Source of the DNA: Candidatus Scatosoma sp.
GTDB lineage: Bacteria > Bacillota > Clostridia > Christensenellales > Borkfalkiaceae
DNA: 64,000 bases
Assembly (NCBI GenBank): GCA_045128055.1
Contig: JBGVRC010000120.1
Span: 21,133-85,132 of the forward strand
Direction: 5' to 3'
Below, one piece after another: positions 12,615-54,693 of this stretch. Each line of letters begins with the position of its first letter. Position 1 is the first letter of the stretch. The position numbers and the translations under genes are program-made. The notes below the pieces were generated by a model, which saw only the letters and a list, made by a program, of their open reading frames with translations, did no database searches and was not told the origin of the DNA.

Positions 12615-12650
12615 ATCCCCTTTGGTTCAATACCAAAGGGGATTTCTTAT
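12615..12650 (+). terminator. intrinsic terminator
   Basis: ATCCCCTTTGG-loop-CCAAAGGGGAT followed by a T-rich run. Confidence 0.75.
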
Positions 12651-12673
12651 TCAACACGTACCTGGTACGCCTG
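12650..12673 (-). repeat. dispersed motif M04 (GTACCTGGTAC class)
   Basis: + strand reads TTCAACACGTACCTGGTACGCCTG; 14/15; intergenic, right after a terminator. Confidence 0.85.
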
Positions 12674-12766
12674 TTTTTATTTTTTACATGATAAAAGACC
12701 GCCCTAAAGGCGGCCTTTATTATATTCTATACAAAACGGTGTAATTAGATATAGATTAAAGTTGCC

Positions 12767-13501
12767 TTAATCCCTTCTTCTTCTGCCAAATAATATCATC
12801 ACCCAAAGCAAAAAACGTAAAAAGTATATCAACGACACAGCCAAAGACGCTACGTACGTTTGCGCCGCCGCGTCCAACATTTTGTCCGCGTACGGAAGCT
12901 CGTCTTGCGTCAAAATCCCTTCGGAAATCAACAGCTTTTTCGCTCTGCGGCTTGCGTTAAATTCCACGGGCAAGGTGACAAGCGCGAATATAAACGACAA
13001 TCCGTACAACGCTACGCCCACAAGTGCCACGTAAAAGCCCGTGTTCGAATTTTCCGTCGCTATCACGAAAAAATCCAAAACCAAGCCCAGCAACACCAGC
13101 GGCATAGCCAAAATACTGCCGATATTCGTCACTTTGACAAGCGCGGTGCGTAATTTATAAGGCAAATATCCGCTCTTTTTTTGCAAAACGTGCCCAACTT
13201 CGTGCGCCGCAACCGCCACAGCCGCAATCGAATCATTGCCGTACACGCTGTCGGAAAGGTTTACCTGCTTTTTCATCGGGTGATAATGGTCGGTCAAGTG
13301 CCCGCGCACCCGTCCAACGGAAATATCCGTCACACCGCCGCGCCGAAGCAATCTTCGCGCCGTATCATACCCCGTCATATGCGATTTCGTCCCCATTGCG
13401 CCGTATTTTTGGTAGGCGGATTTCACTTTCGAGCTGGCAATCCCCGCTATCAACCCGCAGACGAGCATCGCTCCAATGGAAATAATATAATATTCAATCA
13501 T
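12767..13501 (-). CDS. YugP-type membrane zinc metallopeptidase
   Basis: 244 aa; HEVGH zinc motif between N- and C-terminal TM segments. Confidence 0.85.
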   Translation of the reverse strand: MIEYYIISIGAMLVCGLIAGIASSKVKSAYQKYGAMGTKSHMTGYDTARRLLRRGGVTDISVGRVRGHLTDHYHPMKKQVNLSDSVYGNDSIAAVAVAAHEVGHVLQKKSGYLPYKLRTALVKVTNIGSILAMPLVLLGLVLDFFVIATENSNTGFYVALVGVALYGLSFIFALVTLPVEFNASRRAKKLLISEGILTQDELPYADKMLDAAAQTYVASLAVSLIYFLRFLLWVMILFGRRRRD

Positions 13502-13568
13502 TTTTTTGTCCTTATGAAAGTATTTCGTTTATATTATACCCGATTTGCTATACTTTCAATACATAAAA

Positions 13569-14372
13569 TCACAAATCTATCGAGAAGGAATACAAATCGG
13601 ACTTGGAAACGCCGCGGTCTTTCGCCGCGCGCTTCAACGCTTCCTTTTTATCCAACCCAGCCGCCATATAATGCTGGATATGTTCTTTTTCAGACAAAGC
13701 GTTAAGCGGGCTTTCCTTTTCTTCCGCGCCGCCGACGACAAGCACGTACTCCCCGCGTTTTTCGCCCGCCAAGCCTTCCGCCAAGCGGAACGACTGCGCT
13801 TCTTCGTGGATTTTGGTAATTTCGCGCACCGCGCACGCAGGTCTGTCCCCAAACACTTCCGCCATCGCCGCAATATCCTTGTCTACGTCTTGGGGCGCGC
13901 AGTGGAACGCAAGGGTCAAATCGCTGTCCTTATATTTTTCCAAAACCGCGCGTTTTTCACTCTTTTTTTCGGGCAAAAATCCAATGAACGCGAACCTGCG
14001 TGCCGGTAATGCCGACAAAACAAGCGCCGCCACAAAAGCGCAAGCCCCGGGAATAAGGGTGTACGGCTCGTTATTTTCCCGCAAAAACTTACAAACGACG
14101 TTGCCGGGGTCGGACACGACGGGCGTTCCTGCGTCGGACACCACCGCCACCTTTTCCCCGCGACGACTCGCCGCCAAAATCTTCTCCGCGGCTTCCGCTT
14201 CGTTAAATTTATGACAAGCGTACAACGGCTTTTTAATCTCGTACGCGTTCAAAAGCTTAATCGTATGCCGCGTATCTTCGCAAAAAATCACGTCCGCTTC
14301 TTTCAACGTTTCCAAAGCGCGCAAAGTGATGTCTTTCAAATTCCCTATCGGCGTAGCCACAAAACTGACCAT
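13569..14372 (-). CDS. rsmI: 16S rRNA (cytidine1402-2'-O)-methyltransferase RsmI
   Basis: 267 aa; FVATPIGNLKDITLRA...DVIFCEDTR tetrapyrrole-methylase-fold signature; GGAGAG RBS. Confidence 0.9.
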   Translation of the reverse strand: MVSFVATPIGNLKDITLRALETLKEADVIFCEDTRHTIKLLNAYEIKKPLYACHKFNEAEAAEKILAASRRGEKVAVVSDAGTPVVSDPGNVVCKFLRENNEPYTLIPGACAFVAALVLSALPARRFAFIGFLPEKKSEKRAVLEKYKDSDLTLAFHCAPQDVDKDIAAMAEVFGDRPACAVREITKIHEEAQSFRLAEGLAGEKRGEYVLVVGGAEEKESPLNALSEKEHIQHYMAAGLDKKEALKRAAKDRGVSKSDLYSFSIDL

Positions 14373-14382
14373 TTTTCTCTCC

Positions 14383-15090
14383 TTATTCTTCCGTTTTTAC
14401 GTTTTTAATCGTAGGCAAAATTTCCACGCTCGGTTTACCGCCCTTCACCCCTTCAATCATAACCAAATAGGGCTTCAACTCGTCCCTGCCCCCCACAAAT
14501 TGCATTTTCTTCACTTCAATATTGTATTTTTTAAGGGTGTAGCAAACTTCCGCTATCCTGTCCGCCCGATGCAACATACAAAGCCTACCGCCAAACTTCA
14601 AAGCCCTGCCCGCCGCTTGGGCTATATCGGACAAAGTAATGGTGATTTCCTTGCGGCAAATGGCTTTTTTATACTCGCTGCTGTCAAAACCGTCGTTTGC
14701 GCGCTCGTACGGGGGATTGCATAAAATCAAGGAAAAGCTTTCGTTGTATTTTTTAGGCAAATCCTGCAACCGACCCTGCTCAAAGGTAAAATTATCAAAC
14801 CCGTTATATTGCGCCGTCTTTTGCGACAAAGCGGACAACTCTTCTTGCAGTTCGAACAAAGTAAATCGCAAATTTTTCTTATTCTTATTCAAAGCGTAAA
14901 AATGAAAGGCGACGATACCGCTTCCCGCGCAAAAATCCGCTACGTTTTCATTATTTTTCGCCTTTGCAAACCGCGAAAGCAACACGGAATCGGACGTAAA
15001 CCGATACAAGCACGTATCCTGCACGATTTTCAGCCCGTCTAAAAGCATATCTTCCAACACTTCATATTCGCCAAGCGTAAATTCTTCCAT
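14383..15090 (-). CDS. YabB-like N6-adenine methyltransferase (tRNA m6A37-type)
   Basis: NPPY motif (LILCNPPYE); start moved to MEEFTLGEY (ATG 15090) with GGAG RBS; the ORF-track extension to 15180 lacks an RBS. Confidence 0.75.
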   Translation of the reverse strand: MEEFTLGEYEVLEDMLLDGLKIVQDTCLYRFTSDSVLLSRFAKAKNNENVADFCAGSGIVAFHFYALNKNKKNLRFTLFELQEELSALSQKTAQYNGFDNFTFEQGRLQDLPKKYNESFSLILCNPPYERANDGFDSSEYKKAICRKEITITLSDIAQAAGRALKFGGRLCMLHRADRIAEVCYTLKKYNIEVKKMQFVGGRDELKPYLVMIEGVKGGKPSVEILPTIKNVKTEE

Positions 15091-15211: not shown

Positions 15212-16747
15212 GTGAAAAAACTGTATTCTTCTTTACAAGACAACTTAACCGAGTTTAAAACCCTGCTTCCGTCCGAAGATATTTTAACCTATACCTTTGA
15301 AACGCAGGACAAAACGGCTTGCGCGATTATTTACGCGGACGGCATTGTAAACAAGCAGCTTTTAGGCGAGCTTGTCGCAAAGCCCTTATCCCAGCTCACT
15401 TTACCCCAAGAAAAACAAAATGACGGGGGCAGGTACGCGATGAAATCCCAACAAAGCGAAAGTTCCACCCCCCAACAGCTCCCCAAAAAAGCGGAAATTA
15501 TCCAAAAATCTACGCTTTTTCCCGAGCTGAAAACAAAATTCGATTTCGACAGCGCCGTGCAAGAAATTTTGGACGGAAACTCCATTTTACTTGTTGACGG
15601 CATAGCCGTCGGCTTTGTCGTGGGCGCAAAAATGCCCCCGAACCGAGCCGTGGTCGAACCCCCAACCGACGTTTCCATAAAAGGTCCGCGCGAAGGCTTT
15701 ATCGAAGACATCAAAACGAATATGTCGCTTATTCGAAAACGCTTAAAAACTCCCGATTTGCGTTTTGAAACGCTGCGGGTAGGGAAACGTTCGGACACGA
15801 TGGTTTCCCTTTGCTGGCTCAACGGTATCGCCCGCGCGGAATTAAAAGACGAGCTAAAAACAAAAATTCAGCAAATCAGCGTGGATAATATCCCCGATTC
15901 TTCGTATATCGCGGCGTTTATCACGCCCAGAAAGCACTCCGTCTTCCAAACGCTGGGTACGACGGAAAAGCCCGACGTGTTTACCGCCAAGCTCGCGGAA
16001 GGCAGGGTGGGGATTTTGGTGGACGGATCGCCCATTGCGCTCACCGCCCCTTTTTTGCTGACGGAAAATTTACAAAGCTGCGAAGATTACTACGTTTCCC
16101 CCTTCGCCGCCACGTCCTTTCGGTTTTTGCGTTGCCTTGCGCTGTTCGTTGCAATCCTGTTGCCCGCTTTTTATATCTCGGCGCAGCTTTTTAAAATGCA
16201 GCTCTTTCCGCTCGGCTTGATGCTCACCATAGCCAGCAGCGTCCGTTCCCTGCCCCTATCGCCAAGCTTGGAAATGTTCGTCGTATTGCTGCTTTTGGAA
16301 ATTCTAAAAGAATCGAGTATCCGTATGCCAAAATACGTAGGAATGTCCCTATCCGTCGTCGGCGCGCTCGTATTAGGGGAAACGGCGGTGAGCGCGGGCT
16401 TTTTATCCACGCCCGCCATAATCATCGTCGCCTTTTCGGGAATTTGCTTGTATACCATTCCAAATTTCGTGGAAACGGGTAGCATTTTGCGTTGGATTTT
16501 TTTATTCATAGCAGGCTCACTCGGCCCGTTCGGCATCGTACTGTTTATTGCATTTTTGGCGTATTACTTGCTGTCGGCGGACTCCTTCGGTTCGCCTATG
16601 CTCGCGCCGTTTTCACCGCTTGTGAAAGGGGACTTGCGCGATTCCGCCGTCAAGTACGATTTATTATCCCTTACAAAGCGTCCCCGCGTCTTTCGTTTGA
16701 AAAACAAAACGCGTATCCGCCAAAACAAGAACCAAACCAACCGTTAA
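15212..16747 (+). CDS. spore germination protein, GerA family A subunit
   Basis: 511 aa with C-terminal polytopic domain typical of GerAA/GerKA; GTG start uncertain. Confidence 0.85.
   Translation: MKKLYSSLQDNLTEFKTLLPSEDILTYTFETQDKTACAIIYADGIVNKQLLGELVAKPLSQLTLPQEKQNDGGRYAMKSQQSESSTPQQLPKKAEIIQKSTLFPELKTKFDFDSAVQEILDGNSILLVDGIAVGFVVGAKMPPNRAVVEPPTDVSIKGPREGFIEDIKTNMSLIRKRLKTPDLRFETLRVGKRSDTMVSLCWLNGIARAELKDELKTKIQQISVDNIPDSSYIAAFITPRKHSVFQTLGTTEKPDVFTAKLAEGRVGILVDGSPIALTAPFLLTENLQSCEDYYVSPFAATSFRFLRCLALFVAILLPAFYISAQLFKMQLFPLGLMLTIASSVRSLPLSPSLEMFVVLLLLEILKESSIRMPKYVGMSLSVVGALVLGETAVSAGFLSTPAIIIVAFSGICLYTIPNFVETGSILRWIFLFIAGSLGPFGIVLFIAFLAYYLLSADSFGSPMLAPFSPLVKGDLRDSAVKYDLLSLTKRPRVFRLKNKTRIRQNKNQTNR
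15422..15444 (+). repeat. dispersed motif M05 (G-run class)
   Basis: GACGGGGGCAGGTACGCGATGAA; 15/15; sense in gerAA-type gene (DGGRYAMK). Confidence 0.9.
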
Positions 16748-16792: not shown

Positions 16793-17923
16793 ATGAAAAC
16801 GCCCACTCTTCCCAAACAAAACCAATCGGAAAAGGTTTACGCCCGCCAAATCGCTTTCGCGGGCGCATTTTTACTGCCCGCCGCGCAGTTTTTAGAATCC
16901 CCGTCCATTCTCGCAAGACACGCGAAAGGGGATTTGTTGTTGCCCGCGATTATGCATTTTCTATTACAATCTCTCGTGCTCCTTGCTATCGTGTACGCAG
17001 CTTCGCAAAGCGAAACGTCCATTTTAGACCGTCTGAAAGGGGTGTTTGGCAAAGCCATGCCCGTCCTTTACGCTGTTTTTGCCGTTTTTTATTTATTTTT
17101 CGGCGTTTTACCGCTTTTGGATATGGAAAAGTACGCCTATGCGGCGTTTTTCGACACCGCGCCCACCGCTTTTTCCTTTGGCCCGTTTTTTCTTTTCAGC
17201 GCGTATGTCTGCGCCAAAGGTATAAAATCCATCGCGCGAAGCGCCGATTTATGTCTTTTCTTATTCTTATTTCCCTTTCTCGCTTTGCTTGCTATGTCCT
17301 TGACCAAAGCCGATTTTTCTTCCTTGATGCCCTTATTCGGCACGGAATTTTCTCAAATCGGAAGGGCTTTTTCCCGTACGACGCCCCATTTTTCAAGCGC
17401 AATCTTGTTGTTGCCGCTGATTGCCAACCTGCAATACAAAGCAGGGGACGGCGTCAAAATTATGTCAGGCTACTGGATCGGCGCGCTTTTATCCCTGCTG
17501 TTTTTGGCGATTTTTTACGCGGTGTTTTCTTCGCTCGCTCCGCGCGAACATTACGCGTTTTCTAAAATAGCGCAATATTTCCCCGCCTTGTCCGTAATCG
17601 GACGGTTCGACTTGATTTTTATCTACCTTTTATCCGTCGTTTTGCTCTTTTATACCTGCTTACCCTTGCAATACACAACCGAATGTATCGCAAACCTTTT
17701 TAAAATCGAGCGCAAAACGTGGATCAGCGCCGTTTTACACCTGCTCTTGTTTATCGGCGTTTTGTTTTTAAACAAATATTACGACGCTATTTATCAATCC
17801 ATCAGCGGAAATTTGTTTTGGGTTTTTATATTCATCGCGGACATGGTACCACCATTTTTAATTTTTTTACCAAAAAATCGGGGTTTTGACAAACCACGTA
17901 AAAAGGAGCAAAACTATGCATAA
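16793..17923 (+). CDS. spore germination protein, GerA family B subunit (APC-type permease)
   Basis: 376-aa 10-TM-like ORF following the A subunit; AAGGAG RBS. Confidence 0.8.
   Translation: MKTPTLPKQNQSEKVYARQIAFAGAFLLPAAQFLESPSILARHAKGDLLLPAIMHFLLQSLVLLAIVYAASQSETSILDRLKGVFGKAMPVLYAVFAVFYLFFGVLPLLDMEKYAYAAFFDTAPTAFSFGPFFLFSAYVCAKGIKSIARSADLCLFLFLFPFLALLAMSLTKADFSSLMPLFGTEFSQIGRAFSRTTPHFSSAILLLPLIANLQYKAGDGVKIMSGYWIGALLSLLFLAIFYAVFSSLAPREHYAFSKIAQYFPALSVIGRFDLIFIYLLSVVLLFYTCLPLQYTTECIANLFKIERKTWISAVLHLLLFIGVLFLNKYYDAIYQSISGNLFWVFIFIADMVPPFLIFLPKNRGFDKPRKKEQNYA
17831..17854 (-). repeat. dispersed motif M06 (CATG class)
   Basis: + strand reads TTCATCGCGGACATGGTACCACCA; 14/15; in the GerAB-type gene. 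Confidence 0.8.
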
Positions 17924-19169
17924 CACCCACGCGCGCAATACCGTTCGGTATTATATTTTAATCCTTCTCGTACTTTCGTTTTTATTCTTTTCGGGGGATT
18001 TCGGCTTGTTAGACGTACAAAAAACAGCCCTTATCCTTGCCGTCGGCATAGACAAGGAAGAAGACGAGTTTATCATCACTTCGCAAATCGCCCTGCCGCA
18101 GGATTCCAAACAAGGCAAATCCACACAAACCGTCCAGCTCGTCAGCCACGGCAAAACGGTCGCCGACGCCTTTGAAGAAATCAACGCAAAAACAGGCTGG
18201 TATCCTAAGCTCGTCTTTTGCAACCTTATCGTTTTAGGCGAAAGCGCCGTAACGGAAGACGTATTCGGCTCGCTTGACTATTTCATTCGCGACGAGTATT
18301 TTTCCGATAACTGCCAAATCGCAACCTGCGACGGCTACGCAAAAGACCTGCTCAACGTTTCCGCGTTGGTCGACCCGTCCAGCAGCACCGCCATCGGCAA
18401 AGTCCTTTCCGCGCACGCCGAACGGCTTGGTACGGTGTTGCCCACCACCCTGCACGACTTCGCCATCGGCTATTACGGGGACGCGCAATGCGCCTTTGCG
18501 CCCATCGTCACCACTCAGCCCCAGCAAGAACCCACCGCAAACGGTGAAAAGGATTCGGGCAACCAAAGCGGTCAAGGCGGACAGGGCGGCCAAGACGGAG
18601 CAAGCGAGCAGGGCGGTCAAAGCGGTCAAAACGGACAAAGCGGCTTGGCGCAACAGGAAAAACCCGTGTTCAGCGCCCGCGAAACGGCTTTGTTTTTGCG
18701 CGGAAAACGAGTCGCCACGCTCACCGCAGAAGAAACCTTTGCTTTCAACGTCGTCATCGCTTCCTTAAAGCTCGCCCCGCTCACGGTCGAAAAAGACAGC
18801 GCCGCCTGCACCTTGACGATAAAACACAACGACCCCAAGCTTTCCTTGCGCGTTTCCCAGGACGGCAAAGCCACCCTTTTGGTCAAGGTCACGCTGACGG
18901 CGGGGATTTTGGACTATTCGCAATCCCTGCCGCTTGACAAAATCGCCGACGCAGGGGACGTGCCCGACGGCATCTTTTTCGCCGCGGAAAAGAAATTAGC
19001 CGCGGATATACACTCCGTTTTCGACAAAGCGAAAGCCAGCGGCTGCGACTTGTTTGGTATTCAAGACCTACTTTTAAAACACAAACCGCGAAGCTTGCAA
19101 AAATACCAAAACACCATTTTACAAAACACCGCCGCCGACGTCAAAATCCATTTCCGCAACCTGCGCTAA
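17916..19169 (+). CDS. spore germination protein, Ger(x)C family, with G/Q-rich insert
   Basis: Third gene of the gerA-type operon; start set at MHNTHARN (AAGGAG RBS); insert GNQSGQGGQGGQDGASEQGGQSGQNGQSG. Confidence 0.75.
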   Translation: MHNTHARNTVRYYILILLVLSFLFFSGDFGLLDVQKTALILAVGIDKEEDEFIITSQIALPQDSKQGKSTQTVQLVSHGKTVADAFEEINAKTGWYPKLVFCNLIVLGESAVTEDVFGSLDYFIRDEYFSDNCQIATCDGYAKDLLNVSALVDPSSSTAIGKVLSAHAERLGTVLPTTLHDFAIGYYGDAQCAFAPIVTTQPQQEPTANGEKDSGNQSGQGGQGGQDGASEQGGQSGQNGQSGLAQQEKPVFSARETALFLRGKRVATLTAEETFAFNVVIASLKLAPLTVEKDSAACTLTIKHNDPKLSLRVSQDGKATLLVKVTLTAGILDYSQSLPLDKIADAGDVPDGIFFAAEKKLAADIHSVFDKAKASGCDLFGIQDLLLKHKPRSLQKYQNTILQNTAADVKIHFRNLR

Positions 19170-19195
19170 GCTTTCCATTTTGCCTTTCTTTCTCT

Positions 19196-19622
19196 ATGTG
19201 GAAAACGGAAATTTATCCACATAGCTTTTTGTGAAAATGAAAAAATTATGCAATATTTTGTCAAATTATGCATATATCCACTTGGCAAAACCCCGCAAAA
19301 TTTCTATTTTGTGGATAAATAAGGGTTGTCCACCCGTCGATTTCACAAATTGTGGATAACTATCACAAATCCTTTGTGGATAAAAAAGCATTTTCACGGA
19401 TTTCAGGGATTAATCGGGCAAAAAGGGGGCTTTTTCTGTGGATAACTATACCAAAACAAGCTTTTTCAAATCCTTTCAAAACCCTTGTTTTGGTGGAAAA
19501 CTTTTCTTTCGGGTGTATAATTTGCTCTTTATGCACGCTTTTTTGAATAAAATCGGGGCATTTATCCACAAACAAACGTTCTTTTGTTGTTTTATCACAA
19601 AACTTATCCACAGTTATCCACA
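19196..19622. other. DnaA-box cluster 1 (oriC half or DnaA-titrating cluster)
   Basis: Perfect TTATCCACA/TGTGGATAA at 19213, 19310, 19351, 19375, 19437, 19562, 19604 and 19614; one-mismatch boxes at 19196 and 19592; AT-rich stretch 19231-19275; GGGTTGTCCACC at 19323. Confidence 0.8.
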
Positions 19623-19651
19623 CCAAGCCAAATATTTCCGTATGCATAAAA

Positions 19652-20606: not shown

Positions 20607-21260
20607 ATGGAATATTCCTTTCATATATATAATAAGCTCGCCGCCGACGGCGTTACTATGTCCGCAGAAAAACTCTTACGCGAAGCTTTTCAACGGAAAA
20701 AAGACAAAATGACGGGGGCAGGTACGCGTTCAAACGAAAAAAATAGTGATTTTACACCCCAAGCAACCGCAAAAAACGAAGCCCCGCCCCCCGTCGTCGT
20801 TTGCGTGGGGAGCGACCTTGCCATCGGGGATAGCTTAGGCCCTATTTGCGGCTCTCTTTTAAAATACAAAACACAGGGGGTCCAATGCTTTTTGTACGGC
20901 ACGCTCGCCGCCCCCGTCACCGCAAAAGAAATTAAATATATGCGCTCCTTTTTAAAAAAGACCCACCCAAATAGCCCGATTTTGGCAATCGACGCGGCGG
21001 TGGGGGAGAAAGGGGACATCGGCGTTATCCGCGTCACCGACTCCCCCTTGTTTCCAGGCGCAGGCGCAAATAAGCAGCTCGGCAGTCTTGGCGACGTGTC
21101 TATTTTGGGTATCGTAGCCGAAAAATCGGTAACAAACTACGGCATTTTAAACACTACCCGATTGAATTTGGTGTATACCATGTCCGAGATTATTTCCGAA
21201 GGGGTGTCCGCTTTGCTTTGGGAGCAGGCAGGAAAATCCACTTACTTGCAAAATGCGTAA
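20607..21260 (+). CDS. yyaC: sporulation protein YyaC (GPR-like protease fold)
   Basis: 217 aa; VCVGSDLAIGDSLGPICG core typical of YyaC; about 60-aa variable N-terminal extension. Confidence 0.8.
   Translation: MEYSFHIYNKLAADGVTMSAEKLLREAFQRKKDKMTGAGTRSNEKNSDFTPQATAKNEAPPPVVVCVGSDLAIGDSLGPICGSLLKYKTQGVQCFLYGTLAAPVTAKEIKYMRSFLKKTHPNSPILAIDAAVGEKGDIGVIRVTDSPLFPGAGANKQLGSLGDVSILGIVAEKSVTNYGILNTTRLNLVYTMSEIISEGVSALLWEQAGKSTYLQNA
20711..20733 (+). repeat. dispersed motif M07 (G-run class)
   Basis: GACGGGGGCAGGTACGCGTTCAA; 15/15; sense in yyaC (TGAGTRS). Confidence 0.9.
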
Positions 21261-21370: not shown

Positions 21371-21898
21371 ATGAAAACATCCATCACCAAGCGTCTTTGC
21401 CGCGCAGGTATTATCGCCGCGCTGTACACGACGTTGACGTACGTTTTTGCGCCCTTTGCCTTCGGACCTTTTCAAATCCGTCCCGCAGAGGCGCTTTGTC
21501 TTTTAGCTCTTATCTACCCCGAAGCCATACCCGCGCTTGCCGTTGGCTGCGCGCTGTCAAACTTGGCTTCACCCTACGCCTTTTACGATATAACGTTCGG
21601 ATCGCTCACAACCCTGCTTTCCGCGTTCATCACGTACCTGGTAGGGGCAAAATTAAAAAATAAGCCTTTAAAAATCTTCGTCGGCGGACTTTTTCCCGTC
21701 CTTTTAAACGCCTTTTTGATTCCGTTCGTCATCGTATTTTTATGCGACGGCGGTGGGGATTCCGTATGGGTGGCATACTTCACCTTTGTCGGCTCTATCT
21801 TCCTTACGCAAAGCGTTTGGGTGTACGGGCTCGGCGCGCCGTTATACGTTACGATTGCGCGTTTAAAGAAAAAAGGCGTCCGTTTTTTAGCGGATTGA
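21371..21898 (+). CDS. queT: queuosine precursor transporter QueT
   Basis: 175-aa 5-6 TM ORF with a QueT-like N-terminus (IAALYTTLTYVFAPFAFGPFQIRPAEAL). Confidence 0.85.
   Translation: MKTSITKRLCRAGIIAALYTTLTYVFAPFAFGPFQIRPAEALCLLALIYPEAIPALAVGCALSNLASPYAFYDITFGSLTTLLSAFITYLVGAKLKNKPLKIFVGGLFPVLLNAFLIPFVIVFLCDGGGDSVWVAYFTFVGSIFLTQSVWVYGLGAPLYVTIARLKKKGVRFLAD
21626..21649 (-). repeat. dispersed motif M08 (CCWGG class)
   Basis: + strand reads TTCATCACGTACCTGGTAGGGGCA; 14/15; in queT. Confidence 0.8.
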
Positions 21899-23195: not shown

Positions 23196-23235
23196 CAAAA
23201 AACGACCCGTTTTTCGGGTCGTTTCGTTTTTATTT
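23196..23235 (+). terminator. intrinsic terminator
   Basis: AACGACCCG-TTTTT-CGGGTCGTT stem followed by a T-rich run. Confidence 0.75.
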
Positions 23236-23240
23236 CTTGT

Positions 23241-23264
23241 TTCATCGCGTACATGGTACGACTA
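23241..23264 (-). repeat. dispersed motif M09 (CATG class)
   Basis: + strand reads TTCATCGCGTACATGGTACGACTA; 15/15; intergenic after a terminator. Confidence 0.9.
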
Positions 23265-23318
23265 TTTTCCTTTTCTGCAATAAAAAGCTCCGTTTGTACG
23301 GAGCTTTTTTCTCATTGT

Positions 23319-23594
23319 TTACGCGTTGGGATAAACGCTTGCTTTTTTCTTGTCTTTGCCCATTCTTTCATAACGAACAACGCCGTCAACAAGAGCAAAC
23401 AACGTATCGTCTTTGCCGATGCTTACGTTCGTGCCGGGATGAATTTTCGTACCTCTTTGGCGAACGAGAATGTTGCCAGCGAGAACAGCTTGACCATCGC
23501 TACGCTTTACGCCAAGTCTTTTCGCTTCGCTGTCTCTACCGTTGTGGGAAGAGCCGGTACCTTTTTTATGAGCGAATAAACTGATAAAAATCAT
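23319..23594 (-). CDS. rpmA: 50S ribosomal protein L27 with N-terminal propeptide
   Basis: 91 aa; MIFISLF precedes the conserved AHKKGTGSS mature N-terminus. Confidence 0.95.
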
Positions 23595-24614: not shown

Positions 24615-24636
24615 TATCTTTTCAATGCATCATAAG

Positions 24637-24660
24637 ACCCGCCGCAAGGCGGGTTTTTTG
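24637..24660 (+). terminator. intrinsic terminator
   Basis: ACCCGCC-GCAA-GGCGGGT followed by T6. Confidence 0.8.
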
Positions 24661-24680: not shown

Positions 24681-24704
24681 TTCAACGCGTACCTGCCCCC
24701 GTCG
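24681..24704 (-). repeat. dispersed motif M10 (G-run class)
   Basis: + strand reads TTCAACGCGTACCTGCCCCCGTCG; 15/15; intergenic. Confidence 0.9.
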
Positions 24705-24711
24705 TTTTTCA

Positions 24712-24735
24712 TTTAACCCGTACCTGGTATGCCCG
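24712..24735 (-). repeat. dispersed motif M11 (CCWGG class)
   Basis: + strand reads TTTAACCCGTACCTGGTATGCCCG; 13/15; in tandem with M10. Confidence 0.7.
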
Positions 24736-47565: not shown

Positions 47566-49086
47566 TTATCCGCGTAAAAGCTGCGCGTTGGCGGGCAGAG
47601 CAGACGGCTCTTTTTCTTCGCCGCGGACGGTGAAATAATTTTCTTTATACGTTTTGTGGGGGATAAAATACACTCGTTTGTCCGCCCAGCGCGTTCGGGC
47701 TTCGATTGTCAGCAAGCCTTCGTTTAAAATCTTTTGCATAATGTTTTGGTTAAGCTCTACCACGACGGTATCGAAACCGTCGGCAAAGCAATCGAGAATA
47801 CTCGCGCGCATTCGCGTAATCACGAAAATGTCTTCGTGTACGTACGCCATACCTTGACAATGCGGGCAGGGTTTTACCAAATACGAATGGGCGTCGTGTC
47901 CTACTCTTTTGCGGGTAAACTGCGTAATACACAGCTCGCTCATGGGCAAAACGTTGCATTTCGCTTTGTCCGCGGAGAGCTTTTCACGGAGCTTTTCGGT
48001 GACGGCTTCGCGGTGCGCTTCGTCCGCCATATCGATAAAATCCACCACGACGATGCCGCCGATATTACGCAGGCGAACCTGTCTTGCGATTTCTTCCGCG
48101 GCGGCGAGATTGACGGCGAACACGGTGTCTTCCAAATTGTCGCTGCCGACGTAGCCGCCCGTATTTACGTCCACGACGGTCATAGCTTCGGTGGGCTCGA
48201 TGACGATATGCGCGCCGTTTTCCAAGGGCACGATGGGGTCTGCCGCGCCGTAAACCAGCGGGGAAATCCCATATTCTTTCATCATAGCTCTGTCGCCGTT
48301 GTGGAAAACGAGCTTGCTTTCGGGAATATCTTTTCTAAGGTTGATAAGACGGAGCAAACGCTCGTACAATTCCTTATCCCCTACGTGAATGGCGTCAAAA
48401 TCTTCGCCGTACGAATCGCGCATTACGCGGGCGGGCAAATCGTCGTCTTCATACAAAAGCGTGCCGATTTCCGCTGTTTTGGACAAAGCGTTCATATCCG
48501 CGTAAAGCTGTTTTAAATAAGCGGCTTCCGCTTGGATTTGTTCGTCGGAAGCGAAGGGGGCTTGGGTGCGCACGATAAAGCCTTCGTCCTGTCTTTCGCG
48601 CAGGTTATCCACCTTTTGCAAAAGCGTTTGACGGGTAGCTTCGTCGGTGATTTTTCTGGAAATGCCCAAAAAGTTTGTCGTGGGCATATAAATGACGAGC
48701 TTACCAACGAAAGAAAGGTGGGTAGTGACCTTTGCGCCCTTGTTGCCGCGGGGCGGTTTTACCACCTGTACGATAATCTCGTCCCCTTCTTTAAGTTGCA
48801 TCGAATTTACGTTTAACGCGGACATGGTACCGTCATATTTGGTATGGTCGGCGTACGTTTCGTCCATAGACAGGTAACAATTTTTATCCAAACCGCAGTG
48901 GATAAAGGCGGCGTTCATACCCGAAAGCACGTTGACGACCTTGCCTTTATAAATACTGCCGACGCTGGTTGCTCTCGGTTCGAACTCGCAGGAAAATTCC
49001 ATCAATTTTCCGTCTTCTACCAAAGCGGCGAACTGCTGGCCGCAATATCTATCTAAAAACCATTCTGTCTTTATCTTCGTTGACAT
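47566..49086 (-). CDS. rng: Rne/Rng family ribonuclease (RNase G-like)
   Basis: 506 aa; S1 domain (GSIYKGKVVNVLSGMNAAFI) and the VVVDFIDM catalytic region. Confidence 0.88.
   Translation of the reverse strand: MSTKIKTEWFLDRYCGQQFAALVEDGKLMEFSCEFEPRATSVGSIYKGKVVNVLSGMNAAFIHCGLDKNCYLSMDETYADHTKYDGTMSALNVNSMQLKEGDEIIVQVVKPPRGNKGAKVTTHLSFVGKLVIYMPTTNFLGISRKITDEATRQTLLQKVDNLRERQDEGFIVRTQAPFASDEQIQAEAAYLKQLYADMNALSKTAEIGTLLYEDDDLPARVMRDSYGEDFDAIHVGDKELYERLLRLINLRKDIPESKLVFHNGDRAMMKEYGISPLVYGAADPIVPLENGAHIVIEPTEAMTVVDVNTGGYVGSDNLEDTVFAVNLAAAEEIARQVRLRNIGGIVVVDFIDMADEAHREAVTEKLREKLSADKAKCNVLPMSELCITQFTRKRVGHDAHSYLVKPCPHCQGMAYVHEDIFVITRMRASILDCFADGFDTVVVELNQNIMQKILNEGLLTIEARTRWADKRVYFIPHKTYKENYFTVRGEEKEPSALPANAQLLRG
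48812..48835 (-). repeat. dispersed motif M17 (CATG class)
   Basis: - strand reads TGACGGTACCATGTCCGCGTTAAA; 13/15; sense in rng. Confidence 0.7.
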
Positions 49087-49255: not shown

Positions 49256-50227
49256 TTAAGGCAAATATACGTCTTTTTCAACCATTTCTCGTATTGGGGT
49301 GTACGGAGAAGGGGCTTTTTCGAACAAAGCGGCGAGTTTGTTTTGGGGTAAATTGCAAAGGTGGCGCTCTTTTTCGTCGTAAATTTCAAGCACCAAATAG
49401 CTGCCGCGGGATAAAAACCGAAAAACGTCTTTTACGGGGCAGCTTGCCAAAACGGCGACGCGGCGTATCTCTATCCCCCGTTTTAGCGGTTGATTTTGCG
49501 CGAAATCGATGCGGGAGTAGACGGCGGCTTTGTCCTTGTTGCCCAAAAACCCCGCAAAGAGAAACACGGAGAACACGAGCAGGCTGAAATTTGGATTTTT
49601 TTGAACGCACGAAACAAGAAAAAAGCCCGATAGGCAAAGGGAAAAAGCCAAGGTTAGAAAACGGCAAAATTTTTCCGCTTTTTCTTCTGCCAAGGTGACG
49701 TCCGCGTGTTTTTTCGATAGCATTTTCGCGAGCGAGCATTTTAAAATTCTGCCCCCGTCCAAGGGGTAGGCGGGCAGTAAATTTACAATCGCGATAGCGA
49801 GCGAAGAATGGAAAGCTACGTCCGTGAACGCGTACATGGTAGGGACAAACCACCACAAAGCGACGAAAAATACGGCGGTTATAAAATTGCAAAGCGGGCC
49901 GCAAAGCGCGACGATAATTTCGTCTTTGAGAGAAATCCCCCTTAAATCCCCGTCGATAACCGCACCAAAGGGCATAAGTACGACGCGGTTGAGTTTATAG
50001 CCTAATTTGGCGGCGGCGTAGGCGTGCGCGAGCTCGTGCTGAATGGCGACGAGAGCGGAGAGAAAGAATAAAAACAACTCCCCCGTGAAGGCGTACCAAA
50101 CTCCGACCAGCCAAAAGAGCGGATGGACGCGAAAAAGGCGGGTTTTTCTTTTTTTGGGATAAGAAAAAGAGCGGTTTTGCCGCCCGTTTTCTCGTCTTGA
50201 TGGTTTGTTGTTTTGAAATGCGCGCAT
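49256..50227 (-). CDS. spoIVFB: M50 site-2 protease, SpoIVFB-like
   Basis: HELAHA zinc motif and NLLPAYPLDGGR motif; ATG overlaps the upstream stop as TAATG; the 92 N-terminal codons in the ORF track were rejected. Confidence 0.75.
   Translation of the reverse strand: MRAFQNNKPSRRENGRQNRSFSYPKKRKTRLFRVHPLFWLVGVWYAFTGELFLFFLSALVAIQHELAHAYAAAKLGYKLNRVVLMPFGAVIDGDLRGISLKDEIIVALCGPLCNFITAVFFVALWWFVPTMYAFTDVAFHSSLAIAIVNLLPAYPLDGGRILKCSLAKMLSKKHADVTLAEEKAEKFCRFLTLAFSLCLSGFFLVSCVQKNPNFSLLVFSVFLFAGFLGNKDKAAVYSRIDFAQNQPLKRGIEIRRVAVLASCPVKDVFRFLSRGSYLVLEIYDEKERHLCNLPQNKLAALFEKAPSPYTPIREMVEKDVYLP
49824..49847 (-). repeat. dispersed motif M18 (CATG class)
   Basis: - strand reads TGTCCCTACCATGTACGCGTTCAC; 14/15; sense in the spoIVFB-like gene. 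Confidence 0.8.
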
Positions 50228-51129
50228 TATTCCACCCACGCAAGGGAATTTTCCGCTGTAATTTGATAGCAGTTGAGCAAAACGCCGCCCGAATACATCG
50301 TCATTTGCACTTCCGTTTCCCCCGTTGTATACCCGACGGGCACGTTGCTTTTTACTTCGTCGCCCACTTGATAATATATATGGCTGAGCCCGCTGATAAT
50401 CCCCGTAAAAGAGTCGGAGTGGTTGATTTTTAAGGTGTATGTGCCGTCCGCGTTTTGGTACGCTTCGCTCACCGTGCCTTCGACCGCAGGATAGACGCAG
50501 CAATCGTCTTTAAAGGAAAGAATACCTGCGGCGGAAAGGGAAAGCTCTGCGTCGGAAAGCTCGGATACCACGGGCGAGAGCTTGAAATCGGAGTACGAGC
50601 GGTTGTCGACGGTGGCAACCGTTGCGTTGGGGTTGTTCATCGCGCGGAAAAAGGTGTTTACCGCGCTGTTGGGTAAAAATACGTTGGTCAAAAAGATAGC
50701 GCCGCAAAGCGCGCAGGCGATCGCGAACTCTGTGCCAAGCGTGACGCGGACGGCTTTTTGCGCCCGCGTTTCTTCGTTCATCGCGTACCTGCCCCCTTCA
50801 TTTTCTTTATAATCGAACGCATATTCTTCTTCAAAGGCGGCTTTGCGTTCTTGCTCGTCGGCAAAAAGTCGAACGGTGTCGATGCGGTCGGGAACGGCGT
50901 CGAAGGAAATAGAGCCTTCGCTGTTCGCGCCTTCCGCAAATGCGTCCGCGTCCACGGAAAGGGCGGTTTGCGTTTCTTCCACGCGGTTGTTCACCTGCCG
51001 TATCACGCTGTCTTTTAAGGGTGCGGTTTGTTCTAAGCGCGCTTTTTTACGGCGGCTTTTCTTGCGGATAATATTGACGGTGGATACAGGGATTTCTAAC
51101 ATTTCGGCGTATTCTATTTCTTCGTGCAT
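50227..51129 (-). CDS. spoIVFA: SpoIVFA-like membrane protein with degenerate M23/LytM domain
   Basis: 300 aa; one TM; C-terminal LytM-like beta domain; translationally coupled to the M50 protease. Confidence 0.6.
   Translation of the reverse strand: MHEEIEYAEMLEIPVSTVNIIRKKSRRKKARLEQTAPLKDSVIRQVNNRVEETQTALSVDADAFAEGANSEGSISFDAVPDRIDTVRLFADEQERKAAFEEEYAFDYKENEGGRYAMNEETRAQKAVRVTLGTEFAIACALCGAIFLTNVFLPNSAVNTFFRAMNNPNATVATVDNRSYSDFKLSPVVSELSDAELSLSAAGILSFKDDCCVYPAVEGTVSEAYQNADGTYTLKINHSDSFTGIISGLSHIYYQVGDEVKSNVPVGYTTGETEVQMTMYSGGVLLNCYQITAENSLAWVE
50777..50800 (-). repeat. dispersed motif M19 (G-run class)
   Basis: - strand reads TGAAGGGGGCAGGTACGCGATGAA; 15/15; sense in the spoIVFA-like gene (EGGRYAMN). 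Confidence 0.9.
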
Positions 51130-52847: not shown

Positions 52848-53642
52848 TTATCCGTTTTTGTGCTGTCTGCCGTTATGGTCGATATAGTAATCGTCCGTAT
52901 AAATCAATTCGCTGATGGGAACAAAGGTAAAACCGCGGTTTTTCAAGGTGGAAAATATCAAGGGCAGAGCCTTGGCGGTGTGTAGGCCGTTGTTATGGCA
53001 AAGAATAATCGAACCGTTTTTCGCGCTGTTGATAATCCGCATAGCGATCTCCGTTGCGGATAAATTTTTCCAGTCCAGCGAGTCCACGTCCCATTGAATC
53101 GGATACAAGCCCATTTCGCGGCAGGTGTCGATAAGTAGATTGTTATAATCCCCGTACGGGGGACGAAAAAGCGTAACCTTTTGCTTAGTGATTTCTTCAA
53201 TCGCTTTTTTGGAAGTAGTTAGCTCGTCTACGATTTGTTCTTTGGTTAGGGTACTCATATACGGATGGGTGCGGCTGTGCGTACCCATTTCGTGGCCGTT
53301 CGCTACGATTTTTTCTACGTATTCCGGGTATTTTTTCACCCAAAATTCCACGGCGAAAAAGGTGCAGCGCACGTCGTTTTGTTGCATAACGTTAAGTAGT
53401 TCGTCCGTGTGGTCCACTCCCCACGCGCAATCGAAGCTGATGGCGATTTTCTTTTCTTCTATTTCCACCGAATAAATGGGCAGAGAACGGCTTGAACTCG
53501 TACCTGCCCCCGTCGTTTGTGAATTCGGCGCAACCAAATTGACGCAATAGGCGATGACGTAAATCACGCTTAAAAGAGCGGCGAAAACGAGCGTGGACAT
53601 AACAAAAGCCGCTGAAAAACGGCGTCGGATTTGTTTGGGCAT
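52848..53642 (-). CDS. polysaccharide deacetylase (PdaB-like, sporulation type)
   Basis: 264 aa; NodB motifs FDCAWG, HSRTHP and RPPYG; N-terminal TM anchor. Confidence 0.85.
   Translation of the reverse strand: MPKQIRRRFSAAFVMSTLVFAALLSVIYVIAYCVNLVAPNSQTTGAGTSSSRSLPIYSVEIEEKKIAISFDCAWGVDHTDELLNVMQQNDVRCTFFAVEFWVKKYPEYVEKIVANGHEMGTHSRTHPYMSTLTKEQIVDELTTSKKAIEEITKQKVTLFRPPYGDYNNLLIDTCREMGLYPIQWDVDSLDWKNLSATEIAMRIINSAKNGSIILCHNNGLHTAKALPLIFSTLKNRGFTFVPISELIYTDDYYIDHNGRQHKNG
53492..53515 (-). repeat. dispersed motif M21 (G-run class)
   Basis: - strand reads CGACGGGGGCAGGTACGAGTTCAA; 14/15; sense in the deacetylase gene (TGAGTSS). Confidence 0.85.
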
Positions 53643-53883
53643 AGGACTTCTCCATTGTAAGGGAAATTGTTTGTCGAAATTTTACATTTTGCGGCGAAAA
53701 AGGGGTGGCTTTGTCAAAAACGTAGCCCCGCTTTTTCAAGGGGGACAAAATACTGTATTCCTGCTTTGCGCGGAATATGCCCGTCAAAAGCCGAAAAAGA
53801 AAAAATGTCTATAAACGGTTTACTTTTTGCGGGAAATCGTGTATAATATTAGGCACACTATACAAGGGAGCAGGCGAAACGAG

Positions 53884-54138
53884 ATGAGAATTTGGGCAAA
53901 GCTTATGACGGACGGGCATATTAAAAAGCAATACGTTTATGAAAACCCCGAACAGTTGACGTATTCTCATTTTTTCGAGTATTTGACGGAAATTTGTTAC
54001 GCGTTGGATATTCCCACCCCCGTGTTGACCAAGACGCATATCTTCAATTTTGCCAAATTTAATCACGTTAAGTTTGTAAAAAGCGATTTTGTGGAGAGCT
54101 TGGGTTACGGATTTTTGATGCTGGAAAACTTGTTTTAA
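53884..54138 (+). CDS. hypothetical small protein
   Basis: 84 aa from MRIWAKLM; a TGTATAAT -10 box at 53840-53847 places the TSS upstream of this ATG. Confidence 0.5.
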   Translation: MRIWAKLMTDGHIKKQYVYENPEQLTYSHFFEYLTEICYALDIPTPVLTKTHIFNFAKFNHVKFVKSDFVESLGYGFLMLENLF

Positions 54139-54173
54139 TACACGAAACGAAAACCCCTTACAAGGAGAAAATT

Positions 54174-54665
54174 ATGACGGCTTTGGAAAGAGATATTGTC
54201 AATATTTTGCAGGAAGACGCGCGTATATCACCTAAAAAAATCGCGGCGATTTTGTCCGTGGACGAAGCGGTGGTAAAAGCTTGCATTTCGGAGATGGAGC
54301 AAAACGGCGTATTGGTGAAATACACGGCGATCGTCAACAGCGAAAAGGCGGAAGACGCCATTGTGGAAGCGTTGATCGAAGTGAAGGTTACGCCCAAGAA
54401 AAAGGAAGGCTTTGACGGAATCGCCAAGCAAATCGCCGCGTTCCCCGAAGTAAAAGCGGTGTATTTGATGAGCGGCGCGTACGATTTGGCGGTGTTTATC
54501 GAAGACAAGACCTTGCAACAGGTCGCCCGCTTTGTTTCCGAACGAATTTCCACCTTTGACGGGGTGATTTCGACGGCGACGCACTTTATCTTGAAAAAGT
54601 ATAAAATCGAAGGTACGCGCACCTATCGCGACGACGAAGATTTCCGTTTGTCTGTGCAGGCGTAA
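54174..54665 (+). CDS. Lrp/AsnC family transcriptional regulator
   Basis: 163 aa; HTH (ARISPKKIAAILSVDEAVV) plus an AsnC-type ligand domain. Confidence 0.88.
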   Translation: MTALERDIVNILQEDARISPKKIAAILSVDEAVVKACISEMEQNGVLVKYTAIVNSEKAEDAIVEALIEVKVTPKKKEGFDGIAKQIAAFPEVKAVYLMSGAYDLAVFIEDKTLQQVARFVSERISTFDGVISTATHFILKKYKIEGTRTYRDDEDFRLSVQA

Positions 54666-54669
54666 CGCG

Positions 54670-54693
54670 TTCAACGCGTACCTGGTACGGTCA
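54670..54693 (-). repeat. dispersed motif M22 (GTACCTGGTAC class)
   Basis: + strand reads TTCAACGCGTACCTGGTACGGTCA; 15/15; 5 nt after the lrp/asnC stop. Confidence 0.9.

Follow-up and report, generated by a model that had tools for sequence, protein, structure and literature searches.

Intergenic copies and their terminators

The window analyzed in this study is a stretch of 64,000 nucleotides from a contig of Candidatus Scatosoma sp., in which a motif of ~28 bp (an A/T tract, the core TTCAWCGCGTACCTG, 8 free nucleotides and two A/T tracts) recurs in genes and in spacers. The copy TTCAACACGTACCTG-GTACGCCT-GTTTT (12650-12677, plus strand) starts 5 nt past a 13-bp terminator hairpin (12614-12644), which ends the gene at 11329-12600, and is flanked by the terminators of two convergent genes, one lipoprotein-like (plus strand) and the other a Zn-peptidase gene (minus strand). 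Similarly, TTCATCGCGTACATG-GTACGACT-ATTTT (23241-23268, plus strand) is found between two terminators, 16 nt past the hairpin of a gmk-like gene (23200-23224, plus strand) and 14 nt to the left of the bidirectional hairpin (23282-23309) of rpmA (23319-23594, minus strand); it belongs to a 79-bp block that is missing in the 98%-identical strain L128, where the gmk-like terminator is lost together with the motif. The terminator hairpin of a 148-aa gene (24634-24657, plus strand) is followed by a tandem pair on the plus strand, composed of a C-run version at 24681-24708, 23 nt past the terminator and ahead of the holB promoter, and a second copy 31 nt after it (24712-24739). The first site is kept in six related species, and the 31-nt spacing in five relatives.

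On the minus strand, the copy TTCATCGCATACCTG-GTGGCTTG (27069-27096) lies 4 nt past the bidirectional terminator hairpin (27101-27129) of a minus-strand gene, and faces ricT and the Gut-1 RNA in convergent orientation. A duplicate of this segment, with the same hairpin (34824-34854) and the motif (34792-34819, minus strand) separated by 4-5 nt, was found 3' of a DUF6809-type small gene that is convergent with jag. The last copy (54670-54697, plus strand) is located TTCA-first in the 50-nt lrp-aminotransferase spacer, 5 nt past the lrp stop, and is followed by ATTTTG. No separate terminator was found at this site, which is kept in L161 and L163; here the motif itself base-pairs with sequence at the 3' end of lrp (-21.5 kcal/mol). 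Given the short spacer, this copy is probably transcribed, as part of the aminotransferase 5' leader.

Polarity of non-coding copies

An earlier note on this DNA had proposed that all intergenic copies lie at 3' ends of transcription units with the TTCA end nearest the upstream gene. The seven copies that it listed are all present where it placed them and have this polarity, but two junction copies are oriented the opposite way. The first of these (5839-5866, minus strand, with the G-run on the sense strand) covers the ATGA overlap of spmA and spmB, the TGA of the motif being the spmA-like stop and its ATG the spmB-like start, and is perfectly kept in contigs of 73-83% identity. The second (42409-42436, plus strand) fills the lon-engB spacer, provides the SD (AAGGGGG) and ATG of the GTPase gene, and is kept in L157 and L158. 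Furthermore, as the copies at 27069 and 34792 represent one duplicated segment and those at 24681 and 24712 one tandem pair, the window contains only five independent sites, so that a polarity of five out of five corresponds to p ~0.06. Four of these five are situated in spacers between convergent genes, where the "upstream gene" is only the one with the nearest hairpin.

The orientation of the copies was also surveyed in nine related genome segments. TTCA-first copies were found at 3' gene ends in nine locus groups, six of which had them 0-25 nt from terminator T-runs, and G-first non-coding copies were restricted to tight operon junctions. Across related species, copies thus do lie behind terminators with a fixed polarity, while the wording "all intergenic" does not hold.

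Copy number and distribution

Copies were defined as matches of at least 14 bits to a weight matrix built on the 15-nt core, with shuffled sequences as control. The motif is over-represented, with 26 copies in the window versus 0.7 in shuffles, and the window together with the nine related segments (251 kb) contains 80 copies. In Candidatus Scatosoma and its relatives, a group of uncultured spore-forming gut Clostridia, this corresponds to a density of ~1 per 2.5-3 kb in a lineage sample of ~0.3 Mb, a large part of which is origin-proximal and orthologous across species. The motif was present in every related genome segment fetched, as well as in Ca. Scatosoma and Clostridiales MAG loci, and was essentially absent from the viral contigs searched. 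The seven intergenic sites are members of this one lineage-specific motif, which is scattered in genes and spacers alike.

Approximately half of all copies are located within genes, where each of the three reading frames is used. Of the 80 copies in the ten annotated segments 39 are non-coding, non-coding DNA makes up ~15% of the seven segments measured, and copies accumulate roughly five-fold outside genes, mostly at permissive 3' gene ends. Within the window, four copies were found in 918 nt of convergent spacers versus none in 1461 nt of divergent spacers. The strand of the motif tracks the gene and is independent of the replichore, as it shows no flip at the GC-skew minimum, unlike that of the oligomer GAAGCGG. 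A and T are equally tolerated in the flanking tracts, whether the copy is coding or non-coding, and tandem copies exactly 31 bp apart (~three helical turns) occur at two separate loci.

Copies within genes

In genes of the window, the TTCA strand is on the sense strand of a TatD gene (2452-2479, minus strand), of a spore permease gene with a CATGG-GTACC version (17831-17858, plus strand) and of queT (FITYLVGA; 21626-21653, plus strand). The queT site is kept in L154, L157 and L160, and L158 matches it weakly (14.2 bits). The G-run is on the sense strand in a gene for a 1141-aa phosphoesterase/nuclease-like protein (DGGRYE; 9338-9365, minus strand) and in minus-strand genes at 14474-14501 (plus strand, 17.9 bits) and, as a weaker copy of 15.6 bits in the same G-orientation, at 13984-14011 (plus strand). 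Further copies on the minus strand are located in gerA (NDGGRYAMK; 15417-15444), in a DUF1256 gene (TGAGTRSN, a stop-avoiding TGAAC variant; 20706-20733) with an orthologous copy kept in L154, twice in an NFACT gene (40491-40518, and RGGQVRDE at 41501-41528), both kept in all relatives examined, and in mntP (DGAGTCS; 61671-61698). Plus-strand copies were found in three minus-strand genes, encoding an RNase E/G (48812-48839, with a one-base strain difference and other strains nearer to the consensus), an M50 peptidase (49824-49851) and a 300-aa protein (NEGGRYAMN; 50777-50804), and in a polysaccharide deacetylase gene (TGAGTSS; 53492-53519). A protein motif was ruled out by the occurrence of coding copies in three frames and by the TGAAC variants at positions where the consensus would create a stop.

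The motif is constrained at the DNA level. Identity at third codon positions in shared copies (both NFACT copies, DUF1256 and queT) reached 0.93-1.0 versus 0.46-0.64 elsewhere in the same genes, and pooled over all motif positions it was 0.82 versus 0.56 (p=3.6e-5). In comparisons with orthologs no gap codons coincided with coding copies, and the TatD copy has no counterpart in the 81%-identical L148 ortholog, which indicates that copies are gained by substitution and not by insertion. This largely refutes, for coding copies, the insertion of terminator-plus-motif cassettes by a miniature mobile element (MITE/RPE-like). Such an element would account for the 79-bp block of hairpin and motif missing from L128 and for the segment duplicated at 27.1 and 34.8 kb, but the sequences of the adjoining hairpins vary from site to site and across species, and neither terminal inverted repeats nor target duplications were evident at the L128 indel, so we regard it as the least credible of the explanations considered.

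The earlier note had also contrasted the polarity of intergenic copies with that of the coding G-run copies. The coding orientation bias of 24:8 (3:1) fits a codon-usage model of the full 28-mer, which predicts 2.8-5.5:1, and therefore needs no transcriptional function. It is nevertheless what would be expected of a polar signal at the RNA level, in which the TTCA strand marks read-through and antisense RNA for termination or decay, for instance as a C-rich site for Rho or another RNA-binding protein: all 12 C-run copies in genes of the window have the TTCA strand antisense (12:0), post-terminator copies have it sense, and this strand is C/U-rich. We consider such a signal very improbable, as the ratio in genes equals the expectation from codon constraint and about a quarter of the coding copies are sense-oriented, including the conserved one in queT and those in the real genes OppD and OppF. 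The tracts flanking coding copies are moreover rich in A/T (W 0.77-0.91 versus 0.43-0.58 in controls) and not U-specific, T alone reaching only ~0.5, and the likely leader position of the lrp-aminotransferase copy also speaks against it.

Hairpins, T-runs and terminator activity

The small hairpins and T-rich runs described in the earlier note were recovered. A CGTAC/GTACG mini-hairpin of 5 bp is predicted at 12650, 23241 and 54670, and the T fraction after copies is 0.60 for intergenic versus 0.34 for coding ones. The mean MFE of intergenic copies (-2.94 kcal/mol) is lower than that of coding copies (-1.01 kcal/mol, p=8e-5), and intergenic copies also fold better than their own shuffled controls (p ~0.005). 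These enrichments are modest. The hairpins mostly have 4-6 bp and a self-hairpin of -6.5 kcal/mol or lower was found in only 4 of 39 intergenic copies, so most are too weak for an intrinsic terminator. A few copies do look like genuine terminators, such as L161:1626, with a predicted self-fold of -11.3 kcal/mol followed by a T-run.

The suggestion of a post-terminator element was thus partly borne out. A dedicated device of this kind might be a backup intrinsic terminator, a signal for 3'-end processing or a polar roadblock, and coding copies would be unrelated or incidental to it. It would explain the TTCA-first copies near terminator T-runs and at 3' ends in general, the better folding and additional T of intergenic copies, the substantial hairpins followed by T at L161:1626 and at 54670 in the window, the motif inside terminator hairpin loops in L159, and the joint loss of terminator and motif in L128. 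A terminator role, however, leaves unexplained why the core is conserved at synonymous sites in genes, in both orientations, when about half of the copies lie there. The 8 nt that would form the mini-hairpin vary freely across species at the post-terminator site with the strongest conservation, where the core is conserved, and intrinsic terminators do not need a specific sequence of 24 bits. Finally, coding copies form hairpins less readily than expected by chance and are flanked by tracts of A/T instead of T, which makes them un-terminator-like in either direction. We hence consider a dedicated device improbable; terminator activity is not supported as the primary identity of the motif, and any such activity would be secondary.

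Comparison with known repeat systems

The reading that we favor, tentatively and at somewhat less than an even chance, is that of a DUS/USS-like motif recognized in double-stranded DNA throughout the lineage, whose copies accumulate in permissive 3' regions in an orientation compatible with terminators. Like the uptake sequences of Neisseriaceae (DUS) and Pasteurellaceae (USS), the motif combines a short specific core and flanking tracts of A/T, has a density of ~1 per 1-3 kb, is common to related species and occurs on both strands without replichore bias. Uptake sequences in genes likewise occupy several frames, with stop-avoiding variants and one predominant orientation, as in N. meningitidis (245 vs 123; PMC2346458). 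They are also enriched several-fold at the 3' ends of genes in non-coding DNA, with about half of them in terminators in a preferred configuration (PMC1852404; bioRxiv 10.1101/2025.10.24.684340). There are differences as well, given that DUS and USS form the terminator stem as inverted pairs, while this motif stands single or in direct tandem (31-nt period) beside the hairpin, is longer and bipartite with a free octamer, comes from a different phylum (Clostridia) and is related in sequence only through the terminal TGAA. To our knowledge, DNA uptake sequences occur only in relatives of Neisseria and Haemophilus, and we know of no case of sequence-specific DNA uptake in any Firmicute, which counts against this reading. 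That 3' ends strictly have TTCA-first copies, and that intergenic copies are significantly enriched in hairpins and T, could also reflect a real transcriptional function, and a DNA-binding protein without a role in uptake fits the same data.

Such a protein, with sites kept by ordinary selection, could be a nucleoid or topology factor (REP/BIME-like), a factor for condensation or segregation of the chromosome, or a defence or repair nuclease that reads the motif as a "self" marker. It would be consistent with a high-information core and A/T-tolerant flanks in coding and non-coding DNA, with the conservation of synonymous sites, the 31-bp tandem spacing at two loci, the enrichment between convergent genes and the phage contigs without the motif. 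We regard it as possible though unlikely, since the extrapolated ~800-1000 sites per genome far exceed those of known site-specific chromosome organizers; ParB, Noc, RacA, MatP and SlmA have tens of sites each. REP/BIME elements of enterobacteria and pseudomonads, which are bound by proteins (gyrase, IHF) at operon 3' ends, resemble the motif in their high copy number and in their position at gene 3' ends and between convergent genes. They are, however, extragenic imperfect palindromes spread by RAYT transposases, whereas this motif is asymmetric, found equally in coding DNA and arises by substitution.

The motif is most likely read in its double-stranded form by a sequence-specific protein, and if it is of the uptake-sequence kind, the process served would be DNA uptake. 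Copies arise in place through point substitution and would then be maintained, even at synonymous positions, either through selection or because uptake and recombination favor them, and they build up in non-coding DNA, particularly at 3' gene ends that tolerate them. Where a copy follows a terminator, its pyrimidine/T-rich strand coincides with the T-rich strand past the hairpin, and in the resulting TTCA-first orientation the free octamer and the T tract are often shaped into a weak hairpin and T-run that could contribute slight termination as a secondary use. The opposite orientation is seen where the motif is co-opted as SD, start or stop within operons. With intrinsic (Rho-independent) and tandem backup terminators the intergenic copies share the co-orientation with the upstream gene, the position after its terminator and, often, a small hairpin followed by a T tract; they differ in hairpins of ~-3 kcal/mol that are unconserved at orthologous sites, in the conserved 15-nt core and in the half of the copies located in genes. 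Skewed oligomers of the Chi/KOPS/SRS type are similarly over-represented and present within genes, but they measure only 5-8 nt and change strands at the origin, a replichore orientation that would also be expected of a Chi- or KOPS-like binding site and that is displayed in the window by GAAGCGG and not by the motif.

Motif search and abundance

A weight matrix was constructed from 20 copies of the motif, and matches scoring at least 14 bits were accepted, which gave 26 matches in the 64-kb window compared with 0.7 in shuffled sequence. Nine related segments were fetched around ricT and lysS and, together with the window, formed a set of ten annotated segments (251 kb) with 80 motif copies; extrapolation from the segments sampled gives approximately 800-1000 copies per genome. 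The motif is strongly over-represented, as are the DUS and USS uptake sequences. The core common to the copies in the window is TTCAWCGCGTACCTG, followed on its 3' side by an octamer of poorly constrained bases (most commonly CCCCCGTC or GTAsSnnC) and then by a T or A/T tract, and a logo of 90 copies shows two more A/T tracts, one covering +31 to +35 and one upstream (-9 to -6). A palindromic GTACG version interchanges with CCCCC at one orthologous site, and separate 'C-run' and 'GTACG-hairpin' classes were therefore rejected.

In the ten segments, 39 of the 80 copies were non-coding and 41 were located inside genes, so about half of the copies were non-coding, against a non-coding share of about 15% in the seven measured segments. 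Within the window, 4 copies fell in the 918 nt of convergent spacer and none in the 1461 nt of divergent spacer. Direct tandems of two copies, exactly 31 nt apart, were found at two separate loci. The first precedes the holB promoter by about 60-100 nt in the window (24681-24739) and in five relatives (related contigs and segments carry L-numbers, with the position after the colon: L152:8794-8852, L157:8717-8775, L158:8865-8923, L159:7641-7699, and L160:8793-8851), and the second, independent pair follows clpX in L161 (1626-1684).

Polarity of the intergenic copies

The earlier note had reported seven intergenic copies in the window, all at 3' ends of transcription units and all with the TTCA end nearest the upstream gene (TTCA-first). 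All seven were recovered in that orientation, i.e., 12650, 23241, 24681, 24712, and 54670 on the plus strand, and 27069-27096 and 34792-34819 on the minus strand. Strong terminator hairpins precede the copies at 12650 (hairpin 12614-12644), 23241 (23200-23224), and 24681/24712 (24634-24657), bidirectional hairpins precede the two minus-strand copies (27101-27129 and 34824-34854, respectively), and the 54670 copy begins 5 nt past the lrp stop. The observation was nevertheless confirmed only in part, as its extension to all intergenic copies did not stand: the window holds nine non-coding copies, two of them in the opposite polarity, with the G-run on the sense strand (G-first). One of these fills the 24-nt lon-engB spacer (42409-42436), its G-run strand serving as the SD and ATG, and the other forms the ATGA in which the stop and start codons of two spmA/spmB-like genes overlap (5839-5866). 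Moreover, the copies at 27069-27096 and 34792-34819 represent a single duplicated hairpin-plus-motif segment and the 24681 and 24712 copies form a tandem pair, which reduces the seven to five independent sites (p ~0.06 within the window). Four of these five lie between convergent genes, since rpmA and rplU, immediately to the right of the 23241 copy, are encoded on the minus strand.

Across the window and the nine related segments, TTCA-first copies at 3' gene ends formed nine locus groups, a count obtained by reading the sequence contexts, given that a simple hairpin finder overlooked terminators in which the T-run continues into the motif. Six of the groups lie downstream of a gene: the 148-aa gene that precedes holB (as a 31-nt pair in the window and in five relatives, as one copy in L154), clpX (five relatives, another 31-nt tandem pair among them), ricT (plus strand), DUF6809 or gidB (minus strand), NFACT (L158), and a pdaA-like gene (L163). 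The others are the window sites 12650 and 23241 and the lrp-aminotransferase spacer, the last in the window and in two relatives. G-first non-coding copies in the ten segments were confined to tight operon junctions (lon-engB, clpP-clpX, and spmA-spmB). Some metagenome contigs, for which only naive gene calls were available, add more junction cases, and at L149:5940 (metagenome contig, naive gene call) the G-run builds a terminator stem. Considering the recurrence of TTCA-first copies in relatives as nine locus groups, the non-coding enrichment, and the counts in convergent vs. divergent spacers, we regard the polarity rule for 3' ends as real, with part of the classification made after the data had been seen.

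The copies are concentrated at terminators, as single or direct-tandem units beside the hairpin, and inverted-pair-like stems occur at 54670, L149:5940, and in L159 only. The intergenic members of the family are polar neighbours of terminators. In L159, the motif makes up the loop and upper stem of the terminator hairpins after gidB and clpX (11005-11045 and 18247-18287), with the layout GGAGG-TTCACCGCGTACATGGTG-CCTCC-TTTTTT.

Terminator-like features

The same note had interpreted the intergenic copies as a post-terminator element, such as a backup terminator, a roadblock, or a 3'-end processing signal. The CGTAC/GTACG mini-hairpin is predicted at 12650, 23241, and 54670. Several features agree with a role in termination. 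Intergenic copies had a lower mean fold energy than coding copies (-2.94 vs. -1.01 kcal/mol, p=8e-5), folded better than their own shuffles (p ~0.005), and had a higher T fraction after the octamer (0.60 vs. 0.34). Individual copies fold strongly: at L161:1626 the octamer is complementary to its own core (-11.3 kcal/mol), and the 54670 copy pairs with the lrp end (-21.5 kcal/mol, z = -2.1). The location of the motif within terminator loops in L159 agrees with such a role as well. Coding copies, in contrast, had no terminator-like character. Among the traits of an intrinsic terminator, position/orientation and T enrichment (0.60) were present, while hairpin stability was mostly absent (mean -2.9 kcal/mol), with self-hairpins at or below -6.5 kcal/mol in 4 of the 39 intergenic copies. 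The mini-hairpin was not kept at orthologous sites. At the best-conserved site the octamer differs freely between species (CCCCCGTC, CCTATCCC, GTAGCCCT, CCCACCTC, CTACCCCT), with both core and T tract conserved, and the true terminator hairpins adjoining it also differ in sequence. Termination requires no specific sequence of about 24 bits. The polarity and the hairpin/T enrichment of the intergenic copies support the interpretation in part, a backup terminator as the primary role was not supported, and our conclusion is that some of the intergenic copies are weakly shaped like terminators as a secondary feature.

Copies inside genes

Coding copies occupy all three frames (DGGRYAMK, TGAGTRS, RGGQVRDE) in unrelated proteins, for which reason a protein motif was rejected as an explanation, and a TGAAC variant is used where the consensus would create a TGA stop. 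Orthologous genes were compared between the window and relatives with 85-89% identical RicT. In copies common to species, third-codon-position identity was 0.93-1.0 vs. 0.46-0.64 in the remainder of the same genes, and when all motif positions were pooled it was 0.82 vs. 0.56 (p=3.6e-5). No gap codon coincided with any motif copy in this comparison, and the copy in tatD is missing from its counterpart in an 81%-identical contig, which indicates that copies appear by substitution. The copies inside genes thus occur in several frames, arise by point substitution, and are constrained at the DNA level.

Dispersal by mobile elements (MITE or Rickettsia-palindromic-element type) was rejected for the coding copies, as there are no gap codons, and is left open only for one 79-bp indel, at which no TIR or TSD was evident (window vs. 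L128). The window strain carries the indel block (23200-23279, a terminator hairpin plus a motif copy), which the 98%-identical L128 lacks (L128:7262); there, the gmk-like gene and rpmA use one common bidirectional terminator. Small-gene modules of DUF6809 and an XRE-type HTH are duplicated and strain-variable (window 27055-27400 and 34796-35505; L128:11055-11700 and 18600-19200), and in the window a 267-aa ORF without family match takes the place of the copy at 27.1 kb. RAYT-dispersed REP/BIME elements were rejected as well, since these are expected to be extragenic imperfect palindromes, while 41 of the 80 copies lie in genes and the core is asymmetric.

The C-run copies within genes of the window all carry the G-run on the sense strand (12:0), and orientation in genes of seven annotated segments was 24:8. 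A codon model of the core alone predicts about 1:1, by which the bias seemed to point to a function of the RNA; the model of the full 28-mer with its A/T flank predicts 2.8-5.5:1 and fits the data. Sense-strand TTCA copies also exist in real genes (OppD/OppF, an MBL-fold protein, and queT, the last kept in L154, L157, and L160). Given both results, coding constraint explains the bias and an RNA-level function is not required. The flanking tracts of coding copies were A/T-rich (W 0.77-0.91 vs. 0.43-0.58 in controls) with T alone at about 0.5, and this lack of strand preference suggests a structural feature of the DNA rather than a U tract.

Distribution of the motif

Genes of the window include those for GerA, GerAC, a spore permease, and RicT, together with holB, dnaN, rnpA, yidC, and jag, and the host, judged by GerA/GerAC/spore permease and RicT, is a spore-forming Clostridia lineage. 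Proteins identical to those of the window were found in gut metagenome assemblies only, and homologs carry names such as 'Clostridia/Clostridiales bacterium'. The motif was present in 9/9 related genome segments and in 13 metagenome contigs; among the matches listed and re-screened, motif-bearing loci include Candidatus Scatosoma and Clostridiales MAGs, and unrelated genomes among those listed gave mostly single chance matches to the 14-base core. In this sample, the motif is common to related species and not to unrelated ones. Carriage by phages was essentially nil (1 and 0 matches in viral contigs). An inserted block in L159 (760-6133; resolvase, PadR, and MFS transporter) has no motif copy and its flanking core genes have copies, which would fit foreign DNA lacking the motif, although the block is short. 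Literature matches to the motif string were primers only, with nothing relevant on the lineage together with competence. A described RNA family was rejected, as no copy in the window overlapped an Rfam 15 match at the gathering threshold; the only match was a Gut-1 RNA (RF01706, 59.9 bits) at 26880-26954 (+), beginning directly 3' of the ricT stop codon.

Cumulative GC skew in the window falls to a clean minimum at 28-30 kb. The Chi-like GAAGCGG switches strand there (left +2/-10, right +14/-6); the motif has no such switch near 29 kb, and a replication-oriented signal of the Chi/KOPS type was rejected on this ground. The motif has no replichore orientation bias, as is the case for DUS/USS.

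Relation to DNA uptake sequences

Taken together, the underlying object appears to be a new DNA motif that is spread through the lineage and belongs with uptake sequences in kind. On a more far-reaching reading, it would be the first uptake-sequence-type system outside Proteobacteria, a bipartite signal of ~28-45 bp that is read by the DNA-uptake or other self-DNA-recognition machinery of Ca. Scatosoma and relatives and has since been incorporated at gene ends, singly or in tandem, next to terminators. More radically, it could instead be the site of a sequence-specific polar insulator protein closing transcription units. Both are tentative proposals that we consider rather unlikely. To our knowledge, sequence-specific DNA uptake signals are known from two proteobacterial families only and such uptake is not known in Firmicutes; for this reason, and because receptor-mediated uptake by the motif is putative, its recognition by another DNA-binding protein is a serious rival. 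The origin of uptake signals is itself debated (molecular drive vs. selection), and the extended H. influenzae USS also has flanking A/T tracts.

The overall signature of the motif corresponds to that of DUS/USS. One orientation predominates in genes for the motif as for DUS (245 vs. 123 in N. meningitidis; PMC2346458). About half of uptake sequences are located in terminators, in a preferred configuration (PMC1852404; bioRxiv 10.1101/2025.10.24.684340); the motif, too, is concentrated at terminators, though in another arrangement. Uptake sequences also have biased reading frames and avoid stop-creating frames (bioRxiv 10.1101/2025.10.24.684340). In contrast to DUS/USS, the motif belongs to another phylum (Clostridia), has another sequence and a bipartite layout, and is arranged in direct tandem or beside the hairpin, whereas DUS/USS typically form the stem as inverted pairs; its host lies outside Neisseriaceae/Pasteurellaceae and its sequence does not resemble either the DUS or the USS consensus as given in PMC2346458. 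DUS/USS are moreover defined by enhanced uptake or transformation via a dedicated receptor (ComP or ComN-type pilin), a property that is putative for the motif.

If the uptake reading is true, its density, synonymous-site constraint, coding-shaped frame and orientation pattern, and terminator association would mark a third, independent uptake-signal case, in spore-forming gut Clostridia. Such a case would point to natural transformation that favours self DNA in an abundant uncultured gut lineage, and the motif would be a ready sequence tag to track the lineage's DNA. If another protein reads it, the motif would constitute a new, very abundant class of chromosomal site. With either reading, the polarity rule is a testable link between such motifs and transcription-unit ends.

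Other features of the window

A 1141-aa protein (6475-9900, +) with metallophosphoesterase, 5'-nucleotidase C-terminal, and barnase-type ribonuclease domains has a motif copy in its gene and may be a secreted nuclease. Both GAAGCGG and AAAAGCGG are frequent across the window and change strand at about 29 kb, as a Chi-like site would be expected to do. At 19205-19614, eight perfect DnaA boxes (TTATCCACA) occur within ~400 bp, and the 94-aa ORF called at 19363-19647 is probably no gene; this region, ~10 kb away from the minimum in GC skew, could represent a cluster of DnaA boxes or one part of a bipartite origin. No dnaA gene adjoins dnaN in the window and relatives. Between gidB and ypsA/dnaN (28000-30000), the skew minimum is accompanied by a second, looser DnaA-box cluster (boxes 28478-29115), and most genes to either side point toward this position, an arrangement that would be head-on if the minimum is an origin.
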